From: Balneolales bacterium
GTDB taxonomy: Bacteria; Bacteroidota; Rhodothermia; Balneolales; HLUCCA01
NCBI GenBank assembly: GCA_024711145.1
Contig: JANJTJ010000121.1
Coordinates: 1-62,029, forward strand
Reading direction: 5' to 3'
DNA: 62,029 bases
Below, one piece after another: positions 3,952 through 59,543 of the stretch; the first letter of the stretch is position 1, and each line of letters opens with the position of its first letter. Below the pieces are notes generated by a model. It did no database searches and was not told where the DNA came from. It was given only the letters and a program-made list of their open reading frames with translations. A program made the position numbers and the translations under genes.

Positions 3952-5007
3952 TCAAAGAACCGAGAACCGTTGATGACGGTCCAACGCCAGCACCGCCTCG
4001 GTCATGAGGGCCACCAGATGGTCCACATCGGTGAGCGAGGCCGTCTCCACTGGTGAATGCATGTAGCGCAGCGGCAACGACACCAACGCGCTCGGAATAC
4101 CCTGCCGGGTGAAGAAGATGCTGTCGGTATCGGTACCGGTCCGCACGCTGCTGGCTTCGTGCTGGTGCGGTATGGCCCGGGCTTCGGCCACCGCCACCAG
4201 GTGCGCCACCAGCTTCGGGTGGCAGGACGTACCGTGCTGGATGGCAGGCCCCTCGCCCAGCACCACTTTGCCATGCTCGCGCTGGTTGATGCCGGGCGTA
4301 TCGGTGGCATGGGTCACATCCGTCACGATGGCGCAATCCGGGTTGAACCGGTAACTCATCATCCGGGCGCCGAACCCGCCGATCTCCTCCTGCACGGCGT
4401 TCAAGGCAACCACATTCACCTTCAGTTCGGCCCGGCGGGCGGCCAGGTTCTCGAACACCCGGGCGATGGCGTATCCGCCGATGCGGTTGTCCAAGGCCCG
4501 ACCCGTGATGATGTCGTCGGTCAACAGGTCGAAATCGTCGGCATAGGTGATGGGGTCGCCCACACGCACCAGGGCCAGGGCCTCCTCCCGGTTCGCGACA
4601 CCGATATCCACGAACAGGTCTTTCCAGGCGAAGGGCTTGTTCTGGTCTTTGTCCTGGATGTGGATGGCGGTGTGGCCGATCACCCCACTCACCACTCCGC
4701 TACCGGTATGGATGCGCACCCGCCGTGCCCGGGCAATGGTGGGGTCGCTGCCACCGATGCGCTGCACCCATACGAACCCCTGCTCATCCACATGCTGCAC
4801 CACCATGCCGATTTCGTCGGCGTGGGCTTCGATCATTACGGTGATGGCCTCGTCCGACACATTGAGCATGGCCGCGGCGGACCCGTAGGCGTCGGTAAGG
4901 GTTTCATCGGCCAACGGGGTTACGAATTTGAGCCATTCGGCCTGCCCGGCCGATTCATACCCCGTGGGGCTGGGTGTGATCAGCAGCGTTTCGAGTAGTG
5001 GGTGCAT
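3952..5007 (-). CDS. M42 family metallo-aminopeptidase
   Basis: AHADEIG, ALDNRIG, QEEIG, VTDVTH and LRYMHSP metal-ligand motifs; 351 aa. Confidence 0.9.
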   Translation of the reverse strand: MHPLLETLLITPSPTGYESAGQAEWLKFVTPLADETLTDAYGSAAAMLNVSDEAITVMIEAHADEIGMVVQHVDEQGFVWVQRIGGSDPTIARARRVRIHTGSGVVSGVIGHTAIHIQDKDQNKPFAWKDLFVDIGVANREEALALVRVGDPITYADDFDLLTDDIITGRALDNRIGGYAIARVFENLAARRAELKVNVVALNAVQEEIGGFGARMMSYRFNPDCAIVTDVTHATDTPGINQREHGKVVLGEGPAIQHGTSCHPKLVAHLVAVAEARAIPHQHEASSVRTGTDTDSIFFTRQGIPSALVSLPLRYMHSPVETASLTDVDHLVALMTEAVLALDRHQRFSVL

Positions 5008-5010
5008 CTG

Positions 5011-5066
5011 TGGGTGGTGGGTGGTGGGTGGTGGGTGGTGGGTGGTGGGTGGTGGGTGGTGGGTGG
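5011..5066. repeat. Perfect heptamer tandem repeat (TGGGTGG)x8
   Basis: Read directly; begins 3 nt from the M42 start codon. Confidence 0.97.
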
Positions 5067-5073
5067 TAAATTA

Positions 5074-5137
5074 CCCAAAGTCCCAAAGACCCATAGTCCC
5101 AAAGTCCCATAGTCCCAAAGTCCCATAGTCCCAACGT
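5074..5137. repeat. Octamer tandem repeat (CCCA[A/T]AGT)x8
   Basis: CCCAAAGT CCCAAAGA CCCATAGT CCCAAAGT CCCATAGT CCCAAAGT CCCATAGT CCCAACGT; the last unit overlaps the GTG start at 5136. Confidence 0.95.
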
Positions 5138-6371
5138 GAACCAATACAAAGTCTTTACCGATCCGGTGCACGGGTTCGTGCATGTGCCCAAAGGCTTGCT
5201 GCTCCGGTTGGTAGACCACCCCGTGGTGCAGCGGCTGCGGCGTATCCGGCAGTTGGGCCTGGGGTACCTGGTATTCCCCGGCGGCGAACACTCCCGTTTC
5301 TCCCATGCCCTGGGAGCCTTGGGCCTGATGCAACGCACCTTGGCCAGCCTGCGCGAAAAGAACACCACCATCACCAACGCCGAAGCCGAAGGCGCCATGG
5401 CCGCCATTCTGCTGCATGATGTGGGGCACGGTCCGTTCAGCCATACGTTGGAGCATGTGCTCATCCGCGATTTCCATCATGAGCAGATGACCTTGGCCCT
5501 CATGCGGCACCTGGACGAGGAGATGGATGGTGCGCTCCGCACGGCCATCGACATCTTCATCGGTACCCATCCCAAGCCCTTCCTCCATCAGCTCATCTCC
5601 TCCCAATTGGATATAGACCGCCTCGACTACCTCAAGCGCGACGCCTTCCATACCGGCGTGCAGGAGGGTGAAATCGGGGTGGACCGCATCCTGCGCACCA
5701 TGCGCGTCATCAAGGGACACATCGTGATCGAGCGCAAAGGCATCTATGCCGTCGAGAACTATGTGACCGCCCGTCGCCTCATGTACATGCAGGTGTATCA
5801 GCACAAGACCGTACTGGCGGCCGACCAACTGCTCAAGTCGGTCATGCACCGCATAGGCGACCTCACGGATGCCGGCAAACCGCCCTTCACCCCCTCGCCC
5901 GTGCTCGAGTGGTTCCTCAAGGAACGGCCATCGGCCAAACGGGGCATCTCCAAAACCCTGAGGGACCGATTCCTGATGGTGGACGACGACGACTTCCTCC
6001 TCAGCCTGAAATATTGGGCCCGAGAGAAAGACCCCATCCTACGCGACCTGGCCAAACGCTTTCTCGAGCGGCGGTACCTGCGAACCACCTTCCTGCGCGC
6101 ACCCCTGGACGAAGACCGGCTGGATGCGCTCCGCATGCGCACGGCCGAGGCCTGCGGCGGCCGCGAAGATGCCGTACCCTACTACCTGCATACCGGCACC
6201 TTGCACAACGAGGCCTACCGCTTCGAGAACGACAGCATCTGGGTGATGGATGAAACCGGAACCGCCGTCGAGTTCTCCAAGGCCAGCGAAACACGCAATA
6301 TCGCCGCGCTCACCCAGCCGGTGGTCAAACCCTATGTGGTGCATAGGAAGGATGTGGAGCTTCCATTGTAA
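5136..6371 (+). CDS. HD-domain phosphohydrolase (dNTP triphosphohydrolase/YwfO-like)
   Basis: DPVHG, QRLRRIRQLG, HSRFSHALG, LLHDVGHGPFSH and DIDRLDY motifs; GTG start. Confidence 0.9.
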   Translation: MNQYKVFTDPVHGFVHVPKGLLLRLVDHPVVQRLRRIRQLGLGYLVFPGGEHSRFSHALGALGLMQRTLASLREKNTTITNAEAEGAMAAILLHDVGHGPFSHTLEHVLIRDFHHEQMTLALMRHLDEEMDGALRTAIDIFIGTHPKPFLHQLISSQLDIDRLDYLKRDAFHTGVQEGEIGVDRILRTMRVIKGHIVIERKGIYAVENYVTARRLMYMQVYQHKTVLAADQLLKSVMHRIGDLTDAGKPPFTPSPVLEWFLKERPSAKRGISKTLRDRFLMVDDDDFLLSLKYWAREKDPILRDLAKRFLERRYLRTTFLRAPLDEDRLDALRMRTAEACGGREDAVPYYLHTGTLHNEAYRFENDSIWVMDETGTAVEFSKASETRNIAALTQPVVKPYVVHRKDVELPL

Positions 6372-6380
6372 ATTCGTCGC

Positions 6381-7658
6381 ATGATGCGTAAAGAACTCTT
6401 GCTGATCGGGGGACTGGGTATTTTCTGTCTGGGATTGATATTCTGGTTCATCTTTTCAGAATCGTCGCCCTTCGCCCCGAAATCGGAACCCGTCTCACCG
6501 GCCACTTTGGCCAATACCACCGGCATCGTGGAAATCCGCCGGGCCGGCCAACCGCATTGGACCAACGCCGAACCCGGCGATTCGCTCCTGCTCGGCGACC
6601 AATTGCGCACGTCCAACCACGCACAGGCGTTGCTGCGGTTCAGGGCTTCGGCCTGGATATTGGTGGATTCCTCGACCACCCTGACACTGTCCCAGTCCAC
6701 CGGACGCGACCCGGCCCATATCGATCTGGAGACCGGCGCGGTCACCTACAACCGCCTGGTGAGCAAAAGGAACGTGCCCGTCGGTGTCAAAACCGCGGAA
6801 GGCACCTTCTTGAGTGCCCGCCTGGACGAGGTGGACCTGCCGGCCCAGGTCCGCGAAGAATCGTATGTGTCCCGTTACCGGGGCACCACGCGGGCCACGG
6901 CCGACATGGGCGCCTTCCGATGGGTGGTGGGCACCACCACCGTCGACGTACCCGAAACCAACATGCTTACCGCATCCTCCGGGGCGCCGGTGGTCAGGCC
7001 GCTCAAACCCGCCGTGGCCATCCGATACCCGGCCCAGGAAGCCGAATATCCGGCCGGCTACATGTCGCGCGGCTTCAATGTGCTTTGGGGGGCCGATGCG
7101 GCCGCCACTGGCTACCGTGTGGAATGGATGCGTATGGATTCCATACCCCAGTTGGCCAGCGCCCGCGAAGTGGACGAAACCGGTTTCCGCGTGCGGCTGC
7201 TTCCCGAGGGCGTGTACCGGTTCCGGGTACGCACCCGCCTGGCCGACGGACACAGCCTTTGGTCGGAGCCCCTGTCGGTACGGATCGGCGGCACCCGGTA
7301 CCTGTCGGATGTGCCCAAGCCCGATGCCGACTCCGAACCCATCCGGTTCACACACAAACCCTTCGAGGAGAGTTGGATCGTGGGTGGGTACGTGCGCCAG
7401 GACCTGGTGGCCGACCATGAGGTCGTCGTGTATCTGCAGGCGGACGTATGGTACCGGCAACCGGCGGTGGAACCGTTCCGCATACCGCTTCAGCCCGACG
7501 GCTATTTCGAAACCGTGACGCCCAAGGGCCGCGGGTTGTATGTATCCCTGGTGCGCCAGGGTGCCGGCACCTGGCCCGAACTGGTATCCCATCTGCGGTT
7601 GTTGCCCATCCCCGACGGGGAATCGGTGCGGTTCAACGTCGAGCGGCGGATCCACTGA
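6381..7658 (+). CDS. Single-pass membrane protein with FecR-like domain, fibronectin type III-like domain and a C-terminal beta-rich domain
   Basis: N-terminal TM (LLLIGGLGIFCLGLIFWFIF); GD-x-LRT...IDLETGAV FecR pattern; W...GYRVEW...YRFRVR...WSEP FN3 pattern. Confidence 0.7.
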   Translation: MMRKELLLIGGLGIFCLGLIFWFIFSESSPFAPKSEPVSPATLANTTGIVEIRRAGQPHWTNAEPGDSLLLGDQLRTSNHAQALLRFRASAWILVDSSTTLTLSQSTGRDPAHIDLETGAVTYNRLVSKRNVPVGVKTAEGTFLSARLDEVDLPAQVREESYVSRYRGTTRATADMGAFRWVVGTTTVDVPETNMLTASSGAPVVRPLKPAVAIRYPAQEAEYPAGYMSRGFNVLWGADAAATGYRVEWMRMDSIPQLASAREVDETGFRVRLLPEGVYRFRVRTRLADGHSLWSEPLSVRIGGTRYLSDVPKPDADSEPIRFTHKPFEESWIVGGYVRQDLVADHEVVVYLQADVWYRQPAVEPFRIPLQPDGYFETVTPKGRGLYVSLVRQGAGTWPELVSHLRLLPIPDGESVRFNVERRIH

Positions 7659-9067
7659 TGCGCACCCTTCTGGCCTTGCTGCTGTTGGCGGCCCTGGGTA
7701 CCCCCCGGGTTGCCGCCCAGACCGATTCGGTGGCGGTGTATCGGCACCGTGCGGAAATAGCGGTCGATTTCGGCGATTTCACCGGCGCCCTGGCCGAATA
7801 CCGGCATGCCGCACGGCTGGCCCCGGCCGACAACGACCTCCGGTTCCGCATCGGGTTGGTCTTGGGATGGATGGGCAAGTATGAAGCGGCCATCGCCGAA
7901 CTGCGCCCATTGCTCGCGGCCGACCCCGACAACCGGGACGTCCTGGCCGCCTTGGCCCGGGTGCTCGCATGGTCGGGCCAAGGCGGCCGGGCCGAAGCCT
8001 TGGTCGCCGAGGCGCGCTCTCGCGCGCCCGGCGACCAAGGCCTGCTGGGCCTCATGGCCCAGCTCCGGTATTTCGCCGGCGACCTGGGCGGAGCCCGGCG
8101 GTGGGCCGACCAGGCTCTGGCCATCGACCCCGCCGAACCCACCGCCCTCAGCATCGACGCCGGCATCCGGTCGGCCATGGCGGTCCGCTCAACCACGTCC
8201 TCGCTCAACCCCTGGGATAGCGACGACACCTACGCGCGTGTGACCCGCCAACACGTACGTTGGGGCCTGGCTCCCGACCGGTTCCTGGCTATAGACGCCT
8301 CCGCCACCCGAAGCGGCAACCGCACCACCTCGGCCAGCGAAACTGCCTTCACCAGCGGGGCCCGGTTCGAAGCCGATCCTTTCGGCCCCTGGAAATGGAC
8401 CGCCGGCTTGTCGGTGGCCTTCCTGCCCGACGGACTCCGACCCGGCCTGAACGCGTCCGCCGCCTGGGTGGACCATGCGCATACGGTTTCCTTGTTCAGC
8501 AGCCGCTATCCCCTGCTCGACACTCCCTTCCTCATCGCAAGTGGTTCGCACATCTGGGAGAACGGTGTGGTGTATGCCCATACCGGCACCCTGCGCACCG
8601 TGGTGGATGTCGGCTTCGCCGCCTTGCCCTCCACTCGGCGCCTCAGTATGAACGCCCAAGTGAGCCGTGCTTGGAAATGGGGAGCCCTCGAAATGGAACC
8701 CGGCCTGCGGCTACGCGTGGCCGATTTCACGAAGGATGCCACCGGTAGCGGATTTTTCGCGCCGGATTTCTCCCATCAGGAAACGGTACGCCTGGACCTT
8801 CGGACCGCCCCCGTGGGTCGCTATCGGTTCGGAGCCGGGGTGGAAGCGGGTCGACAGCAGTACAAGCGGTTCAACGCGGCCGCAGGCGACCCCACGTTGA
8901 CCTGGGCCGCCGACGTCCGCCTCGGCATACAGCCTACACCCGCTTTCGATGTGGAAGTGGCCTATCTGTACAGCACCCTGCTGAGCGCCAGCACCCAAGA
9001 CCGCCTAGCAGGTGACTATTGGGTACGGTCGGTGGAAGTGCGGATCCGCCTACGGTTCGGATCCTGA
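7658..9067 (+). CDS. Signal peptide + TPR repeats + C-terminal outer-membrane beta-barrel (PgaA/BcsC/YaiO-like export porin)
   Basis: Start placed at 7658 (TGATG overlap) giving signal MRTLLALLLLAALGTPRVAA-Q; TPR-like helices (ALAEYRHAARLAP, GKYEAAIAELRPLLAADP); alternating beta-strands with GFFAPDF and terminal IRLRFGS. Confidence 0.75.
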   Translation: MRTLLALLLLAALGTPRVAAQTDSVAVYRHRAEIAVDFGDFTGALAEYRHAARLAPADNDLRFRIGLVLGWMGKYEAAIAELRPLLAADPDNRDVLAALARVLAWSGQGGRAEALVAEARSRAPGDQGLLGLMAQLRYFAGDLGGARRWADQALAIDPAEPTALSIDAGIRSAMAVRSTTSSLNPWDSDDTYARVTRQHVRWGLAPDRFLAIDASATRSGNRTTSASETAFTSGARFEADPFGPWKWTAGLSVAFLPDGLRPGLNASAAWVDHAHTVSLFSSRYPLLDTPFLIASGSHIWENGVVYAHTGTLRTVVDVGFAALPSTRRLSMNAQVSRAWKWGALEMEPGLRLRVADFTKDATGSGFFAPDFSHQETVRLDLRTAPVGRYRFGAGVEAGRQQYKRFNAAAGDPTLTWAADVRLGIQPTPAFDVEVAYLYSTLLSASTQDRLAGDYWVRSVEVRIRLRFGS

Positions 9068-11119
9068 CCCGGCCGGAGCCACCACCACCGGCTCCTGTTC
9101 CACCCAGTCGGCGGGCAGCCAGGTCCGCATGGCCAAAGCGGTGTCGTAATCCGAAAAACATCCGACCTCCCGGTCGGCGGCCACCCGGATGCGGTAGCAA
9201 TCGGTGCGGGTGGCGGTGGTGTCGAAGGCGGCCGCCTGGGTAGCCGGCACGCGCCAAGGGAAGGAACCCGGGAAGGTCTCCCGTTCGAGCCCCAGCTCCC
9301 GGAGCATCTCCCTATAGGATAGGTCCCGCGGGAAACGGCCCACACCCACTTGCCACCAGATTCCGCCGGTGTGGTTCGGGTCCGGCACCACGTTCACATG
9401 GTCGAACCGGGTGGCGAGGTACTCGGCGAACGCCAAGGCGCCCACTCGGCTGCGGAACGTGCCTACCACCCAATGCCGGTACCCGTCCGGGAAGGGCGGC
9501 GAATAGACATACGGCGGCGGTGGCGGTGCTTGCACCAGGGTGCGGCCCGCGTCGACGTCCGGATCGTGGACGTACCGCAGCAGGTCGTACCGCGTGACCA
9601 CCAGGTACAGGGCCAGCACACCCATCACCAGCCAGCCCCAAGGCATTTTCCGGGCCGGTGCGGCCGGTTTGGGCTTGGGAGCGGTGGCGGCGTTACCGGC
9701 CGCGGCTCCCAGGCCTTTGCGGGTCATGGCTCCCCATTCCTTGTTCCCCTTCAGGAAATCCCATAGCCCCTGCAGCCGCCACCAGGCATGCCGCTGCCGG
9801 TAGCCGATGTTTTCCAGAAACGCATAGGCGATCATGACCACCACATGTTTGAGGCGGGGGTACCGGCGGTAGGTGAATTCTTCGCACAACACGCTGGCGA
9901 CGCTCAATACCATGCCCAGCAATACCGCCGATGCCAGGAACAGGATGGTGAATTCCATATTCAGCGCATCCACCCACCAGGCCAGGATGAACAGGGCGAA
10001 CCCGCCGAATTCCACGATGGGACCGAGCAGTTCGAAGAAGACGAAGAAAGGAACCGCCACGAATCCCAACCGCCCGTAGGTGGGATTCATGAACATTTTG
10101 CGATGGCGCCAGAGGGTATCGGCCAGGCCGCGCTGCCAGCGATTGCGCTGCCGCGACAATACGGCGGGGTCTTCGGGCACTTCGGTCCAACACACGGGTT
10201 CGGGTATGAACCGCACGCGGTACGGAATCTTACGCTCCCGATGGTACCGGTGCAGGCGCACCACCAGCTCCATGTCCTCGCCCACCGTGTCGTGCAGGTA
10301 CCCGCCCACGGCCAACACGGCTTTGCGGTCGAAGATGCCGAACGCGCCGGATATGATGAGCAGGGAATCCAGGTAATCCCACCCCACCCGGCCGAAGAGG
10401 AAGGCCCGCAGGTATTCGACCACCTGGATGCGCGCATAGTAGGATTTCGGGATGCGCACTTCCTTCAGCTCGTTGTTCTCGAACACGCAGTCGTTGGCCA
10501 CACGCACGATCCCACCCACGGCGATGGTGGTCTCATCCTCGATGAAGCACCGCAGCATGTTCTGCAACACCAGGGGCTCGAGCACGGAATCCGCATCGAT
10601 GGCGCAGAAGAGGTCGTTGCGCGAGACGTTGATGCCGGCGTTGAGGGCGTCGGCCTTGCGCCCGTTCACTTTGTCCACCACGACCAACTCCGGATACAGC
10701 TCCGATTTGTACACGGTCTTGATGGGCTGATGATGGAGCACCAGGGGCACGTAGCGGTCCACGGGTTTGAGCCTGAAATGCTCGATGAGCACGTCCATGG
10801 TGCGGTCCTTGCTCCCGTCGTTGATCACGATGATCTCGTAGTTGGGGAACTGCAACTGCAACAGGGATTTGACCGAGGCCACCACGGTGCTTTCCTCGTT
10901 GTAGGCCGGTGCCAATATGCTGATGGGATTGTACAGGTTGGAACTGAACAACCCCTTTAGGGAATACACCTGCTTCTGGCGCAGTTGCTTGCGGATATGC
11001 AGGAAACTGATCGCGATGAGGGCCAGATACACGAAATTGAGCCCGATGAAATACGCCAGGATCCACACGTCCAGCGTTTCCAACAGCCGCAGTACCGGTT
11101 CTCTCAGGAATTCACGCAT
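9050..11119 (-). CDS. Processive family-2 glycosyltransferase (IcaA/PgaC/NodC-like) with a C-terminal extra TM helix and SPOR-like domain(s)
   Basis: APAYNEE, INDGSKD, KADALNAG, IDADS (DxD), GEDMEL and QRNRW motifs; C-terminal TM helices; WGAMTRKG followed by about 215 additional residues. Confidence 0.88.
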   Translation of the reverse strand: MREFLREPVLRLLETLDVWILAYFIGLNFVYLALIAISFLHIRKQLRQKQVYSLKGLFSSNLYNPISILAPAYNEESTVVASVKSLLQLQFPNYEIIVINDGSKDRTMDVLIEHFRLKPVDRYVPLVLHHQPIKTVYKSELYPELVVVDKVNGRKADALNAGINVSRNDLFCAIDADSVLEPLVLQNMLRCFIEDETTIAVGGIVRVANDCVFENNELKEVRIPKSYYARIQVVEYLRAFLFGRVGWDYLDSLLIISGAFGIFDRKAVLAVGGYLHDTVGEDMELVVRLHRYHRERKIPYRVRFIPEPVCWTEVPEDPAVLSRQRNRWQRGLADTLWRHRKMFMNPTYGRLGFVAVPFFVFFELLGPIVEFGGFALFILAWWVDALNMEFTILFLASAVLLGMVLSVASVLCEEFTYRRYPRLKHVVVMIAYAFLENIGYRQRHAWWRLQGLWDFLKGNKEWGAMTRKGLGAAAGNAATAPKPKPAAPARKMPWGWLVMGVLALYLVVTRYDLLRYVHDPDVDAGRTLVQAPPPPPYVYSPPFPDGYRHWVVGTFRSRVGALAFAEYLATRFDHVNVVPDPNHTGGIWWQVGVGRFPRDLSYREMLRELGLERETFPGSFPWRVPATQAAAFDTTATRTDCYRIRVAADREVGCFSDYDTALAMRTWLPADWVEQEPVVVAPAGSGSEP

Positions 11120-58803: not shown

Positions 58804-59487
58804 TCAAAAATTCGGGGTCAGCACCCGATCGCGATAGAAGCTGTCTATGATGCGGATCACCTCGTCCAGATCGTCGGTCACATGGAACAGATCCAGATCG
58901 GTCGGGCTGATGGTGCCTTCGGCCACCATCTTGGTGCGGATCCACTCCACCAAACCGCCCCAATACTCGGTACCCACCAGAATGACCGGAAACCGGGAGA
59001 TCTTGCGGGTCTGGATGAGGGTGAGCGATTCGAACAGTTCGTCCAGGGTGCCGAACCCGCCCGGAAATACCACGAAACTCTGGGCATATTTGATGAACAT
59101 GACCTTCCGGGCGAAGAAGTAGTTGAAATCGACCCGGTACTTGTGGTCCACGTAGGCGTTGGCGGCTTCCTCGAAGGGCAGTTTGATGCACAGACCTACC
59201 GATTTGCCCCCACCCTGCCGGGCGCCTTTGTTGCCGGCCTCCATGATGCCGGGGCCACCGCCGGTGATCACACCGAAGCCGAGGCCGGTGATCATTTCGG
59301 CCAGACGGACGGCTTTCTCATAATATTCCGTTCCCGGTTTGAGGCGCGCCGATCCGAATACCGAAACACATGGACCGATACGAAGCATGGTGTCGTAGCC
59401 ATCGACGAATTCGCCCATGATTTTGAAAACGCTCCAGATATCGCGTTCGAATCCGTCGGCGTAATGCAAGTTGAAGTCCTGGGTCAT
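58804..59487 (-). CDS. LOG family nucleotide phosphoribohydrolase (TIGR00730-like)
   Basis: VSVFGSAR, TGGGPGIMEAGN, FFARK, PGGFGTLDE. Confidence 0.92.
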   Translation of the reverse strand: MTQDFNLHYADGFERDIWSVFKIMGEFVDGYDTMLRIGPCVSVFGSARLKPGTEYYEKAVRLAEMITGLGFGVITGGGPGIMEAGNKGARQGGGKSVGLCIKLPFEEAANAYVDHKYRVDFNYFFARKVMFIKYAQSFVVFPGGFGTLDELFESLTLIQTRKISRFPVILVGTEYWGGLVEWIRTKMVAEGTISPTDLDLFHVTDDLDEVIRIIDSFYRDRVLTPNF

Positions 59488-59543
59488 GGGTTCGGGGTTC
59501 GGGGTTCGGGGTTTGAAGTTTGAAGTTTGAGGTCGGGGGTTTA
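59488..59543. repeat. Degenerate 7-bp tandem repeat: (GGGTTCG)x3, GGGTTTG, (AAGTTTG)x2, AGGTCGG, GGGTTTA
   Basis: Read directly; fills the spacer between the DUF5683-like and LOG genes. Confidence 0.85.

Follow-up and report, generated by a model that had tools for sequence, protein, structure and literature searches.

A repeat-filled divergent gene gap in a Balneolales genome belongs to a dispersed class of polarised hepta- and octamer arrays

Introduction

The gap between two divergently transcribed genes of a Balneolales bacterium, one encoding an M42-family aminopeptidase and the other an HD-domain phosphohydrolase (M42 and HD hereafter), consists almost entirely of two abutting tandem arrays of short units. 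The locus lies near one end of a 62,029-nucleotide stretch of DNA (the window; contig JANJTJ010000121.1 of assembly GCA_024711145.1, here C96), which is part of G000, a fragmented 2.3-Mb metagenome-assembled genome (MAG) of 138 contigs with 63% GC and 90% completeness. Such a locus raises the question of whether the arrays form a switch dedicated to the operon headed by HD, as suggested by an original prediction that viewed them as a slippage-prone contingency locus or structural switch tuning surface-glycan export, or whether they exemplify something more general. We find that the locus is a standard member of a class of polarised hepta-/octamer repeats known in other phyla and not a dedicated glycan-export switch. 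Within G000, it is likely to represent a version, lacking an open reading frame (ORF), of a genome-wide module that comprises a G/T-rich array of 7–8-nt units, an AT-rich junction and a C/A-rich array of 7–8-nt units.

Results

Two opposed arrays fill the M42–HD gap

The gap spans 128 nt (5008–5135), from the M42 ATG, which ends at 5007 on the minus strand, to the HD GTG at 5136 on the plus strand, and reads CTG, eight copies of TGGGTGG, TAAATTA and eight copies of CCCAWAGW (Table 1). The gap size, both arrays, the junction and the overlap with the GTG, all part of the original prediction, were borne out by inspection of the sequence and by Tandem Repeats Finder (TRF), which delimits the left array at 5010–5067 (8.3 copies, 100% matches, score 116) and assigns the right array 7.6–8 copies and a score of 94. 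The units of the right array are, in order, CCCAAAGT, CCCAAAGA, CCCATAGT, CCCAAAGT, CCCATAGT, CCCAAAGT, CCCATAGT and CCCAACGT, an A/T alternation that implies a 16-nt higher-order unit; the terminal GT of the last octamer provides the first two bases of the HD GTG. Each array contains eight GGG tracts, those of the left array on the plus strand and those of the right array on the minus strand. Homology supports both start codons: the relatives of HD begin with GTG or TTG four codons ahead of a conserved YKVFT, and tblastn alignments of M42 extend to the N-terminus.

Arrays of this quality are not expected by chance, given that 40 dinucleotide shuffles of the window (2.48 Mb) yielded five arrays of period 7 or 8 (3.5 copies or more), and no tandem repeat in them scored above 70 in TRF, compared to 116 and 94 for the real ones. 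No Rfam family matched within positions 4500–5700. Exact look-ups of the HD and M42 proteins returned no other assembly with this array locus, and a metagenome scan for the array junction GGGTGGTAAATTACCCAAAG produced three unrelated chance matches.

Related arrays are dispersed across the genome

A TRF census of the whole genome (period 7 or 8, at least 3.5 copies) identified 98 arrays, 64 with period 7 and 34 with period 8, in about 84 clusters over 2.3 Mb, compared to the 5 arrays in 2.48 Mb of shuffled sequence. Most of these (76 of the 98) are located outside called genes, in divergent, tandem and convergent gaps, and the remaining 22 are inside genes. About 20 arrays consist of the octamer CCCAWAGW or its variants ACTATGGG, AAAGTCCC and ACCCATAG, and six consist of the heptamer ACCACCC. 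The pattern of three consecutive CCCAWAGW units has 83 matches in G000 but none in 150 other Balneolales genomes and none in a reversed control.

At least eight contigs break at or beside 7/8-nt arrays (C42 109–163, C65 68–129, C36 3019–3077, C136 5633–5742, C120 5033–5065 and others), so that the true number of arrays is probably above 98. The 22 intragenic arrays are typically about 4.3 × 7 = 30 nt long, preserve the frame and reside in long ORFs (e.g., C52 15317–15349, C24 8178–8283 and C120 2213–2242), and similar in-frame elements of four heptamers are on record for Geobacter.

The genes next to the arrays bear directly on the possibility that the M42–HD gap is a contingency (phase-variation) locus, in which slippage would change promoter geometry and thereby switch or tune the operon of HD, the FecR-like gene and the porin gene, and with it exopolysaccharide export. 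This reading can draw on the perfect left array and the near-perfect right array, both of which are slippage-prone, on the filling of the whole divergent promoter region by arrays, and on the downstream BcsC/PgaA/PelB-like porin beside a PgaC-like synthase; moreover, repeats in a 5′ untranslated region (UTR) can tune expression, as with the AGAT repeats of Moraxella UspA2 in the summary given in PMC4679880. However, units and layout shared with this locus flank about 80 loci without a functional theme, and both the first gene of the operon (HD) and the divergent M42 gene encode housekeeping-type enzymes. A Pfam scan of 20 genes whose start codons abut arrays likewise detected mostly housekeeping functions and no functional theme; these genes include KatG, aldehyde and alcohol (Fe-ADH) dehydrogenases, DeoC, Dus, LOG, a metallophosphoesterase, AraC, RmlA, RmlB and an outer membrane protein. 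The original prediction had itself named genome-wide scatter of the units as evidence against a function-specific role, and because both units are scattered without regard to gene function, as the 98 arrays and the 83 octamer matches demonstrate, a specific tuning of surface-glycan export is not supported. Furthermore, the 7-/8-nt units of the M42–HD gap lie outside ORFs and outside any recognisable −33/−7 spacer, and an analogous repeat class in other bacteria was likewise judged not to be phase-variable (PMC4692102). Altogether, we regard a contingency locus as improbable. In unit size, copy number, spread across the genome, polarity and the absence of a functional theme, the arrays agree with the dispersed hepta-/octanucleotide simple sequence repeats (SSRs).

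Array pairs follow a strict polarity

The gene-relative statistics of this section and the others were obtained with our own crude codon-usage gene caller on a fragmented, 90%-complete MAG. Among the 21 pairs of adjacent arrays, 16 run from a G-rich to a C-rich array, none runs from C-rich to G-rich, and 5 are of equal sign (16:0, two-sided binomial ~3e-5); because reverse-complementing a pair preserves this order, the asymmetry is real. The G-to-C pairs are mostly separated by a short AT-rich junction. Relative to genes, arrays with G3/C3 tracts located within 30 nt of a start codon carry the C tract in the sense orientation in 12–13 of 13–14 cases (p = 0.002–0.003), and the composition of the start-adjacent arrays is 37% C, 28% A, 20% T and 15% G. 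Arrays that adjoin only stop codons are mostly of the G-rich version. All five intergenic (CCACCCA)n arrays end 0–3 nt before an ATG, in the sense orientation.

In a divergent gap, this polarity implies two arrays of opposite skew, each forming a C-rich leader to its start codon, which is the arrangement observed between M42 and HD, where both arrays obey the rule. Layouts like that of the M42–HD spacer recur at C134 1262–1359 and C63 27339–27440, and a similar one is found at C100 42185–42270, where CAT is followed by 3.5 GTGGGTG-like units, TAATATCTTCA, 5.6 units of TTCATCC and TTG.

The octamer is an arm unit of PF05635 cassettes

G000 encompasses seven PF05635 genes (23S_rRNA_IVP, Avd-like four-helix bundle), all scoring above the family cut-off. 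These we take to be relatives of Avd, the accessory protein of diversity-generating retroelements (DGRs), and of the proteins encoded in 23S rRNA intervening sequences (IVS). TRF arrays lie within 200 nt of six of the seven genes, against a random expectation of 2.8% (P = 3.5e-9), the seventh having decayed arms, and arrays flank three of the five complete loci on either side (P = 2e-8). The arms of a cassette are inverted complements: on C98, (CGGTACTA)x13.6 is followed by the ORF and (GTACCGTA)x5.5, and complementary arms are likewise seen on C58 and at loci L159–L168. The ends of contigs C36 and C136 overlap the heads of C102 and C104 by 72 nt, which yields two joined cassettes of the structure (GGGACTWT)n, TGTGTCAGGTAG, PF05635 ORF, (CCCAWAGW)n. 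The octamer of positions 5074–5137 is the arm unit of these two cassettes (3′ arm on C102/C104, with the complement 5′ on C36/C136). The two cassettes, which are paralogous or allelic, differ in octamer count (6 vs 14 and 8.4 vs 12 units), an indication that unit number shifts over time, which counts in favour of the contingency reading discussed above.

The association extends beyond the octamer. Four of the commonest unit families in the genome are arms of resident cassettes, namely, the octamer, ACGGCTG, ACCGTAGT and ACGACTG. A conserved (A)TGTGTCAGGTAG motif is located 50–60 nt upstream of the PF05635 ORF, and an eighth copy is located where C119 ends (8753). G002, a genome of the same family (about 9 of 10 loci), and G153 and G156 (Gracilimonas/Balneola) share this architecture but have different units and different upstream motifs (e.g., GCACAGATTTAGGA in G002). 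The array-rich genomes G002, G153, G156 and G000 carry 7–13 PF05635 copies each. In the array-poor G003, 160 kb yielded no arrays, and PF05635 is represented by a pseudogene alone. An octamer family of Gracilimonas, (ATCACNNN)n, is spread over the whole genome and makes up inverted pairs that flank PF05635 genes and also precede the HD orthologue. A literature search for a link between PF05635 and repeat arrays, made in the library open to searching, identified no paper describing one.

In Gracilimonas and Balneola (L015–L018, L024, L026, L034, L035 and L041), inverted (GTGATNNN)n ... (NNNATCAC)n arrays are kept across species about 60–200 nt upstream of the HD orthologue, with TTTTTAATATCTTC, probably a −7 box, after them. 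Each of these Gracilimonas/Balneola genomes has 23–104 pattern matches for the ATCACNNN arrays, with the GTGAT-arm nearly always first. A DGR was considered as the context of the PF05635 genes and rejected: there is no RVT_1 reverse transcriptase in the 90%-complete G000, so these are not DGR Avd genes.

The 23S rRNA IVS of Leptospira and Coxiella form a long hairpin with an S23p/PF05635 ORF in the loop, and ORF-less versions exist. The PF05635 ORFs of G000 similarly lie between inverted arms. Unlike the IVS, the cassettes of G000 are located between protein genes rather than in rRNA, and their arms are tandem arrays of 7–8-nt units, whereas the M42–HD module is ORF-less with non-complementary arms. 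Compared with the cassettes, the M42–HD module shares the arm unit CCCAWAGW, but only the 7 nt of TAAATTA separate its arrays, C96 has no PF05635 match, and TGGGTGG and CCCAWAGW are not complementary arms (folding z = −1.1).

The physical linkage prompts a broader suggestion, which we put forward tentatively and consider doubtful at present: rather than mere by-products of slippage, the arrays may be cis-elements of a PF05635 cassette system, with ORF-less modules that carry the same units, such as 5008–5137, representing non-autonomous or decayed forms dispersed in intergenic DNA, and a PF05635 pentamer may recognise the arms as DNA or RNA, thereby affecting processing, spread or the expression of flanking genes. 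In such a system, the PF05635 gene would occupy the loop of a hairpin with the G-rich arm on the 5′ side and the C-rich arm on the 3′ side, the units being cassette-specific.

Promoters, leaders and secondary structure

The original prediction had also stated that the gap has no ordinary promoter or ribosome-binding site. Our scan of the M42–HD spacer likewise found no sigma-70 promoter and no intrinsic terminator, and there is no Shine-Dalgarno (SD)-like sequence ahead of the M42 or HD start. The missing SD, however, is the norm in this genome, where SD-like 4-mers precede 13.5% of the starts compared to 11.4% in a control window. Ahead of genes, the most strongly over-represented hexamers are TATCTT, TATATT and TATTTT, which are −7-like (TAnnTT), together with TTTACC. 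The junction TAAATTA is accordingly a candidate pair of back-to-back −7 boxes of the Bacteroidota type and, judging from the sequence, probably contains two promoters. The distances from TAnnTT to the start codon are bimodal (0–10 and 30–50 nt), and those from the junction to the two starts, 63 and 60 nt, belong to the upper tail.

Genome-wide, TAnnTT, often in the context tCCGTAtcTT, ends 0–10 nt before the start in 78 cases and 30–50 nt before it in 66, among 620 called genes; many mRNAs of G000 may be leaderless, the start calls being crude. Three other interpretations of the sequence elements in the gap were tried and rejected. A −33 TTTG contributed by the opposite array would, on our reading, be spaced by 2, 10 or 26 nt rather than 19–21 nt. 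The junction could be a relic of a PF05635 stop region, but the match to its C102 counterpart, GGTAAATAA, is too short because GGT is also part of the unit of the left array. Finally, the octamer does not serve as a promoter element in general: most isolated copies of CCCAWAG lie within genes, and their distance to starts is not fixed. With the candidate −7 box located between the arrays rather than across one of them, and no −33 TTTG at 19–21 nt, a change in unit number would not act in the manner expected of a contingency locus.

The structural half of the original prediction fared unevenly. The motifs are there, as claimed: both arrays match the canonical G-quadruplex (G4) motif, G3N4 on the plus strand and G3N5 on the minus strand, with eight tracts each. 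RNA G4s in the leaders are not expected, since the G-rich strand is the template for both genes and the mRNAs would therefore have C-rich, structure-free leaders; indeed, the putative RNA leaders of both genes are essentially unstructured (−1.8 kcal/mol over 90 nt). A DNA-level switch, in which (TGGGTGG)8 on the plus strand and (ACTWTGGG)8 on the minus strand fold into G4s or, with their complements, i-motifs when the DNA is unwound and so modulate divergent transcription, would place each G4 upstream of the AT-rich element of the opposite gene and on the template strand of its own leader. Each array satisfies the G3+N1–7 × 4 motif eight-fold, 28 of the 266 G4-motif regions of the genome lie within 7/8-nt arrays, oligonucleotides of GGGAATC and GGGGAYT form G4s and their complements i-motifs in vitro (PMC4692102), and an AT-rich element preceded by a G4 motif predicts promoters in GC-rich bacteria (G4PromFinder, PMC5801747). 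Nevertheless, about two-thirds of the arrays (e.g., those of ACGGCTG, ACCGTAGT, AACATTC and AAGGATG) lack a G3 tract and still have the same layout and polarity, so G4 formation cannot be the common principle. In the G4PromFinder authors' own control, the G4 added little specificity (PMC5801747), and for the M42–HD gap G4 formation is suggested by motif matches. We consider a G4/i-motif switch unlikely.

The looser proposal that the TGGG and CCCA repeats pair in a fold-back, that is, a cruciform or hairpin that insulates or terminates transcription, finds precedent in other modules with complementary arms (C132 69520–69621, C135 1111–1201, C7 2803–2873 and the PF05635 cassettes). In the M42–HD gap, the periods differ (7 vs 8), and the whole spacer folds as single-stranded DNA at −20.3 kcal/mol compared to −17.6 ± 2.5 kcal/mol for shuffles (z = −1.1), with 25 of 200 shuffles folding equally well; moreover, a terminator-like site is missing, and transcription should not run into a divergent gap. 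The fold-back, being no better than in shuffled sequence, is thus highly improbable.

Comparison with relatives suggests what the module may have replaced. In five loci with a divergent M42–HD pair (L004, L008, L011, L009 and L032), there is a conserved non-repeat promoter core, AAATAGTACTAAG...CCATAATAGCCAAAGAAAA.TGTATATTG (also given as AAATAGTACTAAG..CCCATAATAGCCAAAGAAAA.TGTATATTG), that is absent in G000; others among the nearest relatives have a different upstream gene. Stretches of this core resemble two G000 array units, AGTACTA and CCCATAGT-CCCAAAGT, which may represent a seed or a coincidence. Local de novo growth of the repeats from the ancestral promoter sequence, unrelated to the PF05635 cassettes, could be argued on the grounds that relatives carry CCCATAATAGCCAAAG at the equivalent place, resembling CCCATAGT-CCCAAAGT, and that the core of L004, L008 and L011 includes CCCATAATAGCCAAAGAAAA just upstream of HD, resembling two octamer units. 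Such resemblances are short and could be due to chance, and isolated CCCAWAG copies show no promoter-like positioning. Moreover, the octamer makes up about 20 arrays at unrelated loci and the arms of two PF05635 cassettes, so the family as a whole probably did not arise by independent growth from a seed at each site, and we view this scenario as unlikely overall.

Under the preferred reading, in which the spacer is one instance of the genome-wide module, the module would have overwritten the ancestral promoter core that relatives still keep, and the arrays would grow and shrink by replication slippage, in line with the eight perfect copies on the left and the 16-nt super-period on the right. 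TAAATTA, the only AT-rich element, fits the −7 box of the genome (TAnnTT) on both strands, which probably gives two back-to-back promoters. If so, each array would end up in a transcript as a leader of about 55 nt, free of structure and without an SD, and a change in unit number would alter leader length and promoter context without constituting a dedicated on/off switch for export.

Several points weigh against this reading. That the junction contains promoters and that the arrays serve as leaders are steps that we infer; the 60–63 nt from TAnnTT to the starts exceed the main modes of 0–10 and 30–50 nt, CCG, a frequent context ahead of the −7 box, is missing from the junction, and inspection reveals no canonical −33 TTTG at the proper spacing. 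Analogous repeats were found to be under-represented between divergent ORFs by Rehm et al. (PMC4692102). The genome-wide statistics depend on a crude gene caller, and slippage is deduced solely from the perfection of the arrays and the differing unit numbers of the paralogous cassettes. As for an origin from a cassette, none of the PF05635 cassettes was found to use TGGGTGG in its arms; together with the non-complementarity of the arms, this leaves cassette descent of the M42–HD module unproven.

The operon and neighbouring genes

The divergent M42–HD pairing is kept across Balneolales, and the neighbourhood is conserved within the family. The HD orthologues in Balneolales are 57–70% identical; all relatives of HD belong to Balneolales, and the nearest genomes represent other genera, with no more than 70% protein identity. 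Downstream of HD, the 425-aa gene starts with an ATG at 6381, 9 nt after the HD stop (6371), and is syntenic with HD in the relatives from the same family. The start of the tetratricopeptide repeat (TPR)-barrel gene overlaps the preceding stop (TGATG at 7658). The originally predicted spacing of the operon is therefore correct, whereas the FecR label given to its second gene is based on a sub-threshold score (19.5 vs 24).

For the product of the third gene, AlphaFold2 (AF2) predicts ten TPR helices and about 16 strands (pLDDT 82, pTM 0.72), and the best PDB matches of the model in Foldseek are BcsC (E = 2.9e-14), PelBC (1.9e-8) and PgaA (TM 0.68). BcsC/PgaA/PelB porins combine periplasmic TPRs with a 16–18-strand outer-membrane barrel and are encoded beside a processive family-2 glycosyltransferase (GT2) synthase, a layout that is also found here, the PgaC-like GT2 gene being convergent with the porin gene. 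At the sequence level, the family cut-offs were not reached. The predicted fold supports the assignment of this protein as a BcsC/PelB/PgaA-like exopolysaccharide export porin, and it is indeed the third gene of the operon directly downstream of the arrays that folds in this way, as originally proposed. The export-porin annotation thus stands; the link from the arrays to export does not.

The window contains a second array module, at the start of a LOG-family gene (Table 1).

Table 1. Array modules, their flanking genes and the PF05635 cassettes; coordinates refer to the window unless a contig is named, and a dot marks features without an assigned strand
Feature	Coordinates	Strand	Evidence or remark
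M42-family aminopeptidase gene	3952..5007	-	Pfam Peptidase_M42, E = 8.7e-81; ATG 3 nt from left array
Left array (TGGGTGG)x8, perfect	5011..5066	.	Plus strand, G3N4 G4 motif; minus strand, (CCACCCA)n C-rich leader reaching M42 ATG
AT-rich junction TAAATTA	5067..5073	.	Plus strand TAAATT; minus strand TAATTT plus TTTACC
Right array (CCCAWAGW)x8	5074..5137	+	C-rich leader entering HD GTG at 5136; minus strand, G3N5 G4 motif
HD-domain phosphohydrolase gene, dGTPase-like	5136..6371	+	Pfam HD, HD_assoc_2; weak dGTPase NCBIfam matches
Gene for 425-aa protein with FecR-like and fn3-like regions, both sub-threshold	6381..7658	+	FecR 19.5 bits (cut-off 24); fn3 20.1 bits (cut-off 25)
TPR-barrel gene (signal peptide, five TPR pairs, ~16-strand barrel, 469 aa)	7658..9067	+	AF2, Foldseek and TPR Pfam matches
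Processive family-2 glycosyltransferase gene, PgaC/IcaA-like	9050..11119	-	Glycos_transf_2, Chitin_synth_2; TIGR03937 PgaC_IcaA 133 bits (cut-off 422)
LOG-family gene	58804-59487	-	Pfam Lysine_decarbox/LOG
Second array module, (GGGTTCG)x3.7 abutting (GTTTGAA)x2.9	59488..59530	.	C-rich side on minus strand enters LOG-family ATG
PF05635 genes between inverted 7/8-nt arrays	C58 219-720, C98 7075-7660, C27 17730-18206, C3 4088-4596, C62 6380-6870		
Remaining two PF05635 cassettes	Ends of C36/C136 joined to heads of C102/C104		Octamer arms

Two further types of repetitive sequence were observed in G000. Homopolymer-like runs of G or C, 60–135 nt long, occur at or near contig ends (C14 8–105, C76 123–257, C52 17–80 and C73 15991–16081) and are probably sequencing or assembly artefacts. 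Two Y1_Tnp genes (PF01797, RAYT/IS200-like) are present on C39 (1–222 and 312–653) and C135 (4440–4784); the one on C39 adjoins 25- and 45-nt tandem repeats with the palindrome GGGGCTTCAGCCCC, an arrangement that looks REP/RAYT-type and is distinct from the 7/8-nt arrays.

Discussion

Repeats of this dispersed heptamer and octamer type have a record going back to 1990 in cyanobacteria and were later found in Xanthomonas and Beggiatoaceae; the cyanobacterial heptamers, known as STRR, were reportedly described by Mazel et al. in 1990. We know of no accepted origin or function for these repeats. At the M42–HD locus the class is seen at its cleanest, two arrays making up the entire divergent promoter region.

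The closest parallel comes from the work of Rehm et al. (2015; PMC4692102) on the dispersed repeats GGGAATC of Xanthomonas and GGGGAYT of Nostoc PCC 7120, which are mostly non-coding. In that study, the G-rich strand is the non-coding one within 50 bp upstream of ORFs and the coding one just after stops (PMC4692102). The arrays of G000 share with these repeats the dispersal of 7-nt-class units, the polarity, the lack of a functional theme, the inverted pairs and the G4-capable units. They differ in that many 7-/8-nt unit families coexist in one genome, most of them without G3 tracts, in that the arrays are longer (8–14 units) with no preference for four units, and in that the locus analysed here occupies a divergent gap, a position under-represented in the Rehm data; furthermore, the paper reports no link to PF05635.

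Other repeat classes show partial overlap. The LSSR5-11 survey of Mrazek, Guo and Shah (2007), as summarised in PMC4679880, describes repeats of free-living non-pathogens that are dominated by heptanucleotides, mostly intergenic and attributed to polymerase slippage; the survey described no G-to-C polarity of pairs, AT-rich junction or associated gene family, and Balneolales are outside the coverage of the survey. The TAACTGA direct repeats of Beggiatoaceae, Cyanobacteria and some Bacteroidetes (MacGregor 2015; PMC4679880) resemble the present arrays in lying a few nt upstream of starts in the ‘forward’ orientation, in forming several heptamer arrays per intergenic region and in their patchy distribution across lineages, and a role as binding sites in 5′ leaders has been proposed for them (PMC4679880). 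Unlike TAACTGA and the STRR, the units described here are genome-specific rather than shared across phyla, and they come with two features of their own, the octamer period and the strict pairing from G-rich to C-rich. SSR contingency loci, such as those of Haemophilus, Neisseria and Moraxella UspA1/UspA2, share with the M42–HD locus a slippage-prone repeat in the promoter or 5′-UTR of an envelope-related operon; in the accounts given in PMC4679880 and PMC12721329, however, these consist of 1–5-nt units concentrated at genes for surface or virulence factors in small genomes adapted to a host, with copy number demonstrably switching expression, in contrast to the 7–8-nt units at housekeeping genes seen here.

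Thus, the repeat class and its polarity relative to genes were already known (PMC4692102), and what this locus and genome add is two testable regularities: the strict order of paired arrays, G-rich and then C-rich, and the tight physical linkage between arrays and PF05635 genes. For annotation, it follows that arrays located beside surface-polysaccharide genes should not be called phase-variation switches without population data. If the PF05635 link is functional, the repeats gain a protein partner and a logic resembling that of mobile elements. Should the cassette reading prove true, a small-protein/repeat system of Balneolales, and possibly of other array-rich phyla, would act in trans on the M42–HD promoter.

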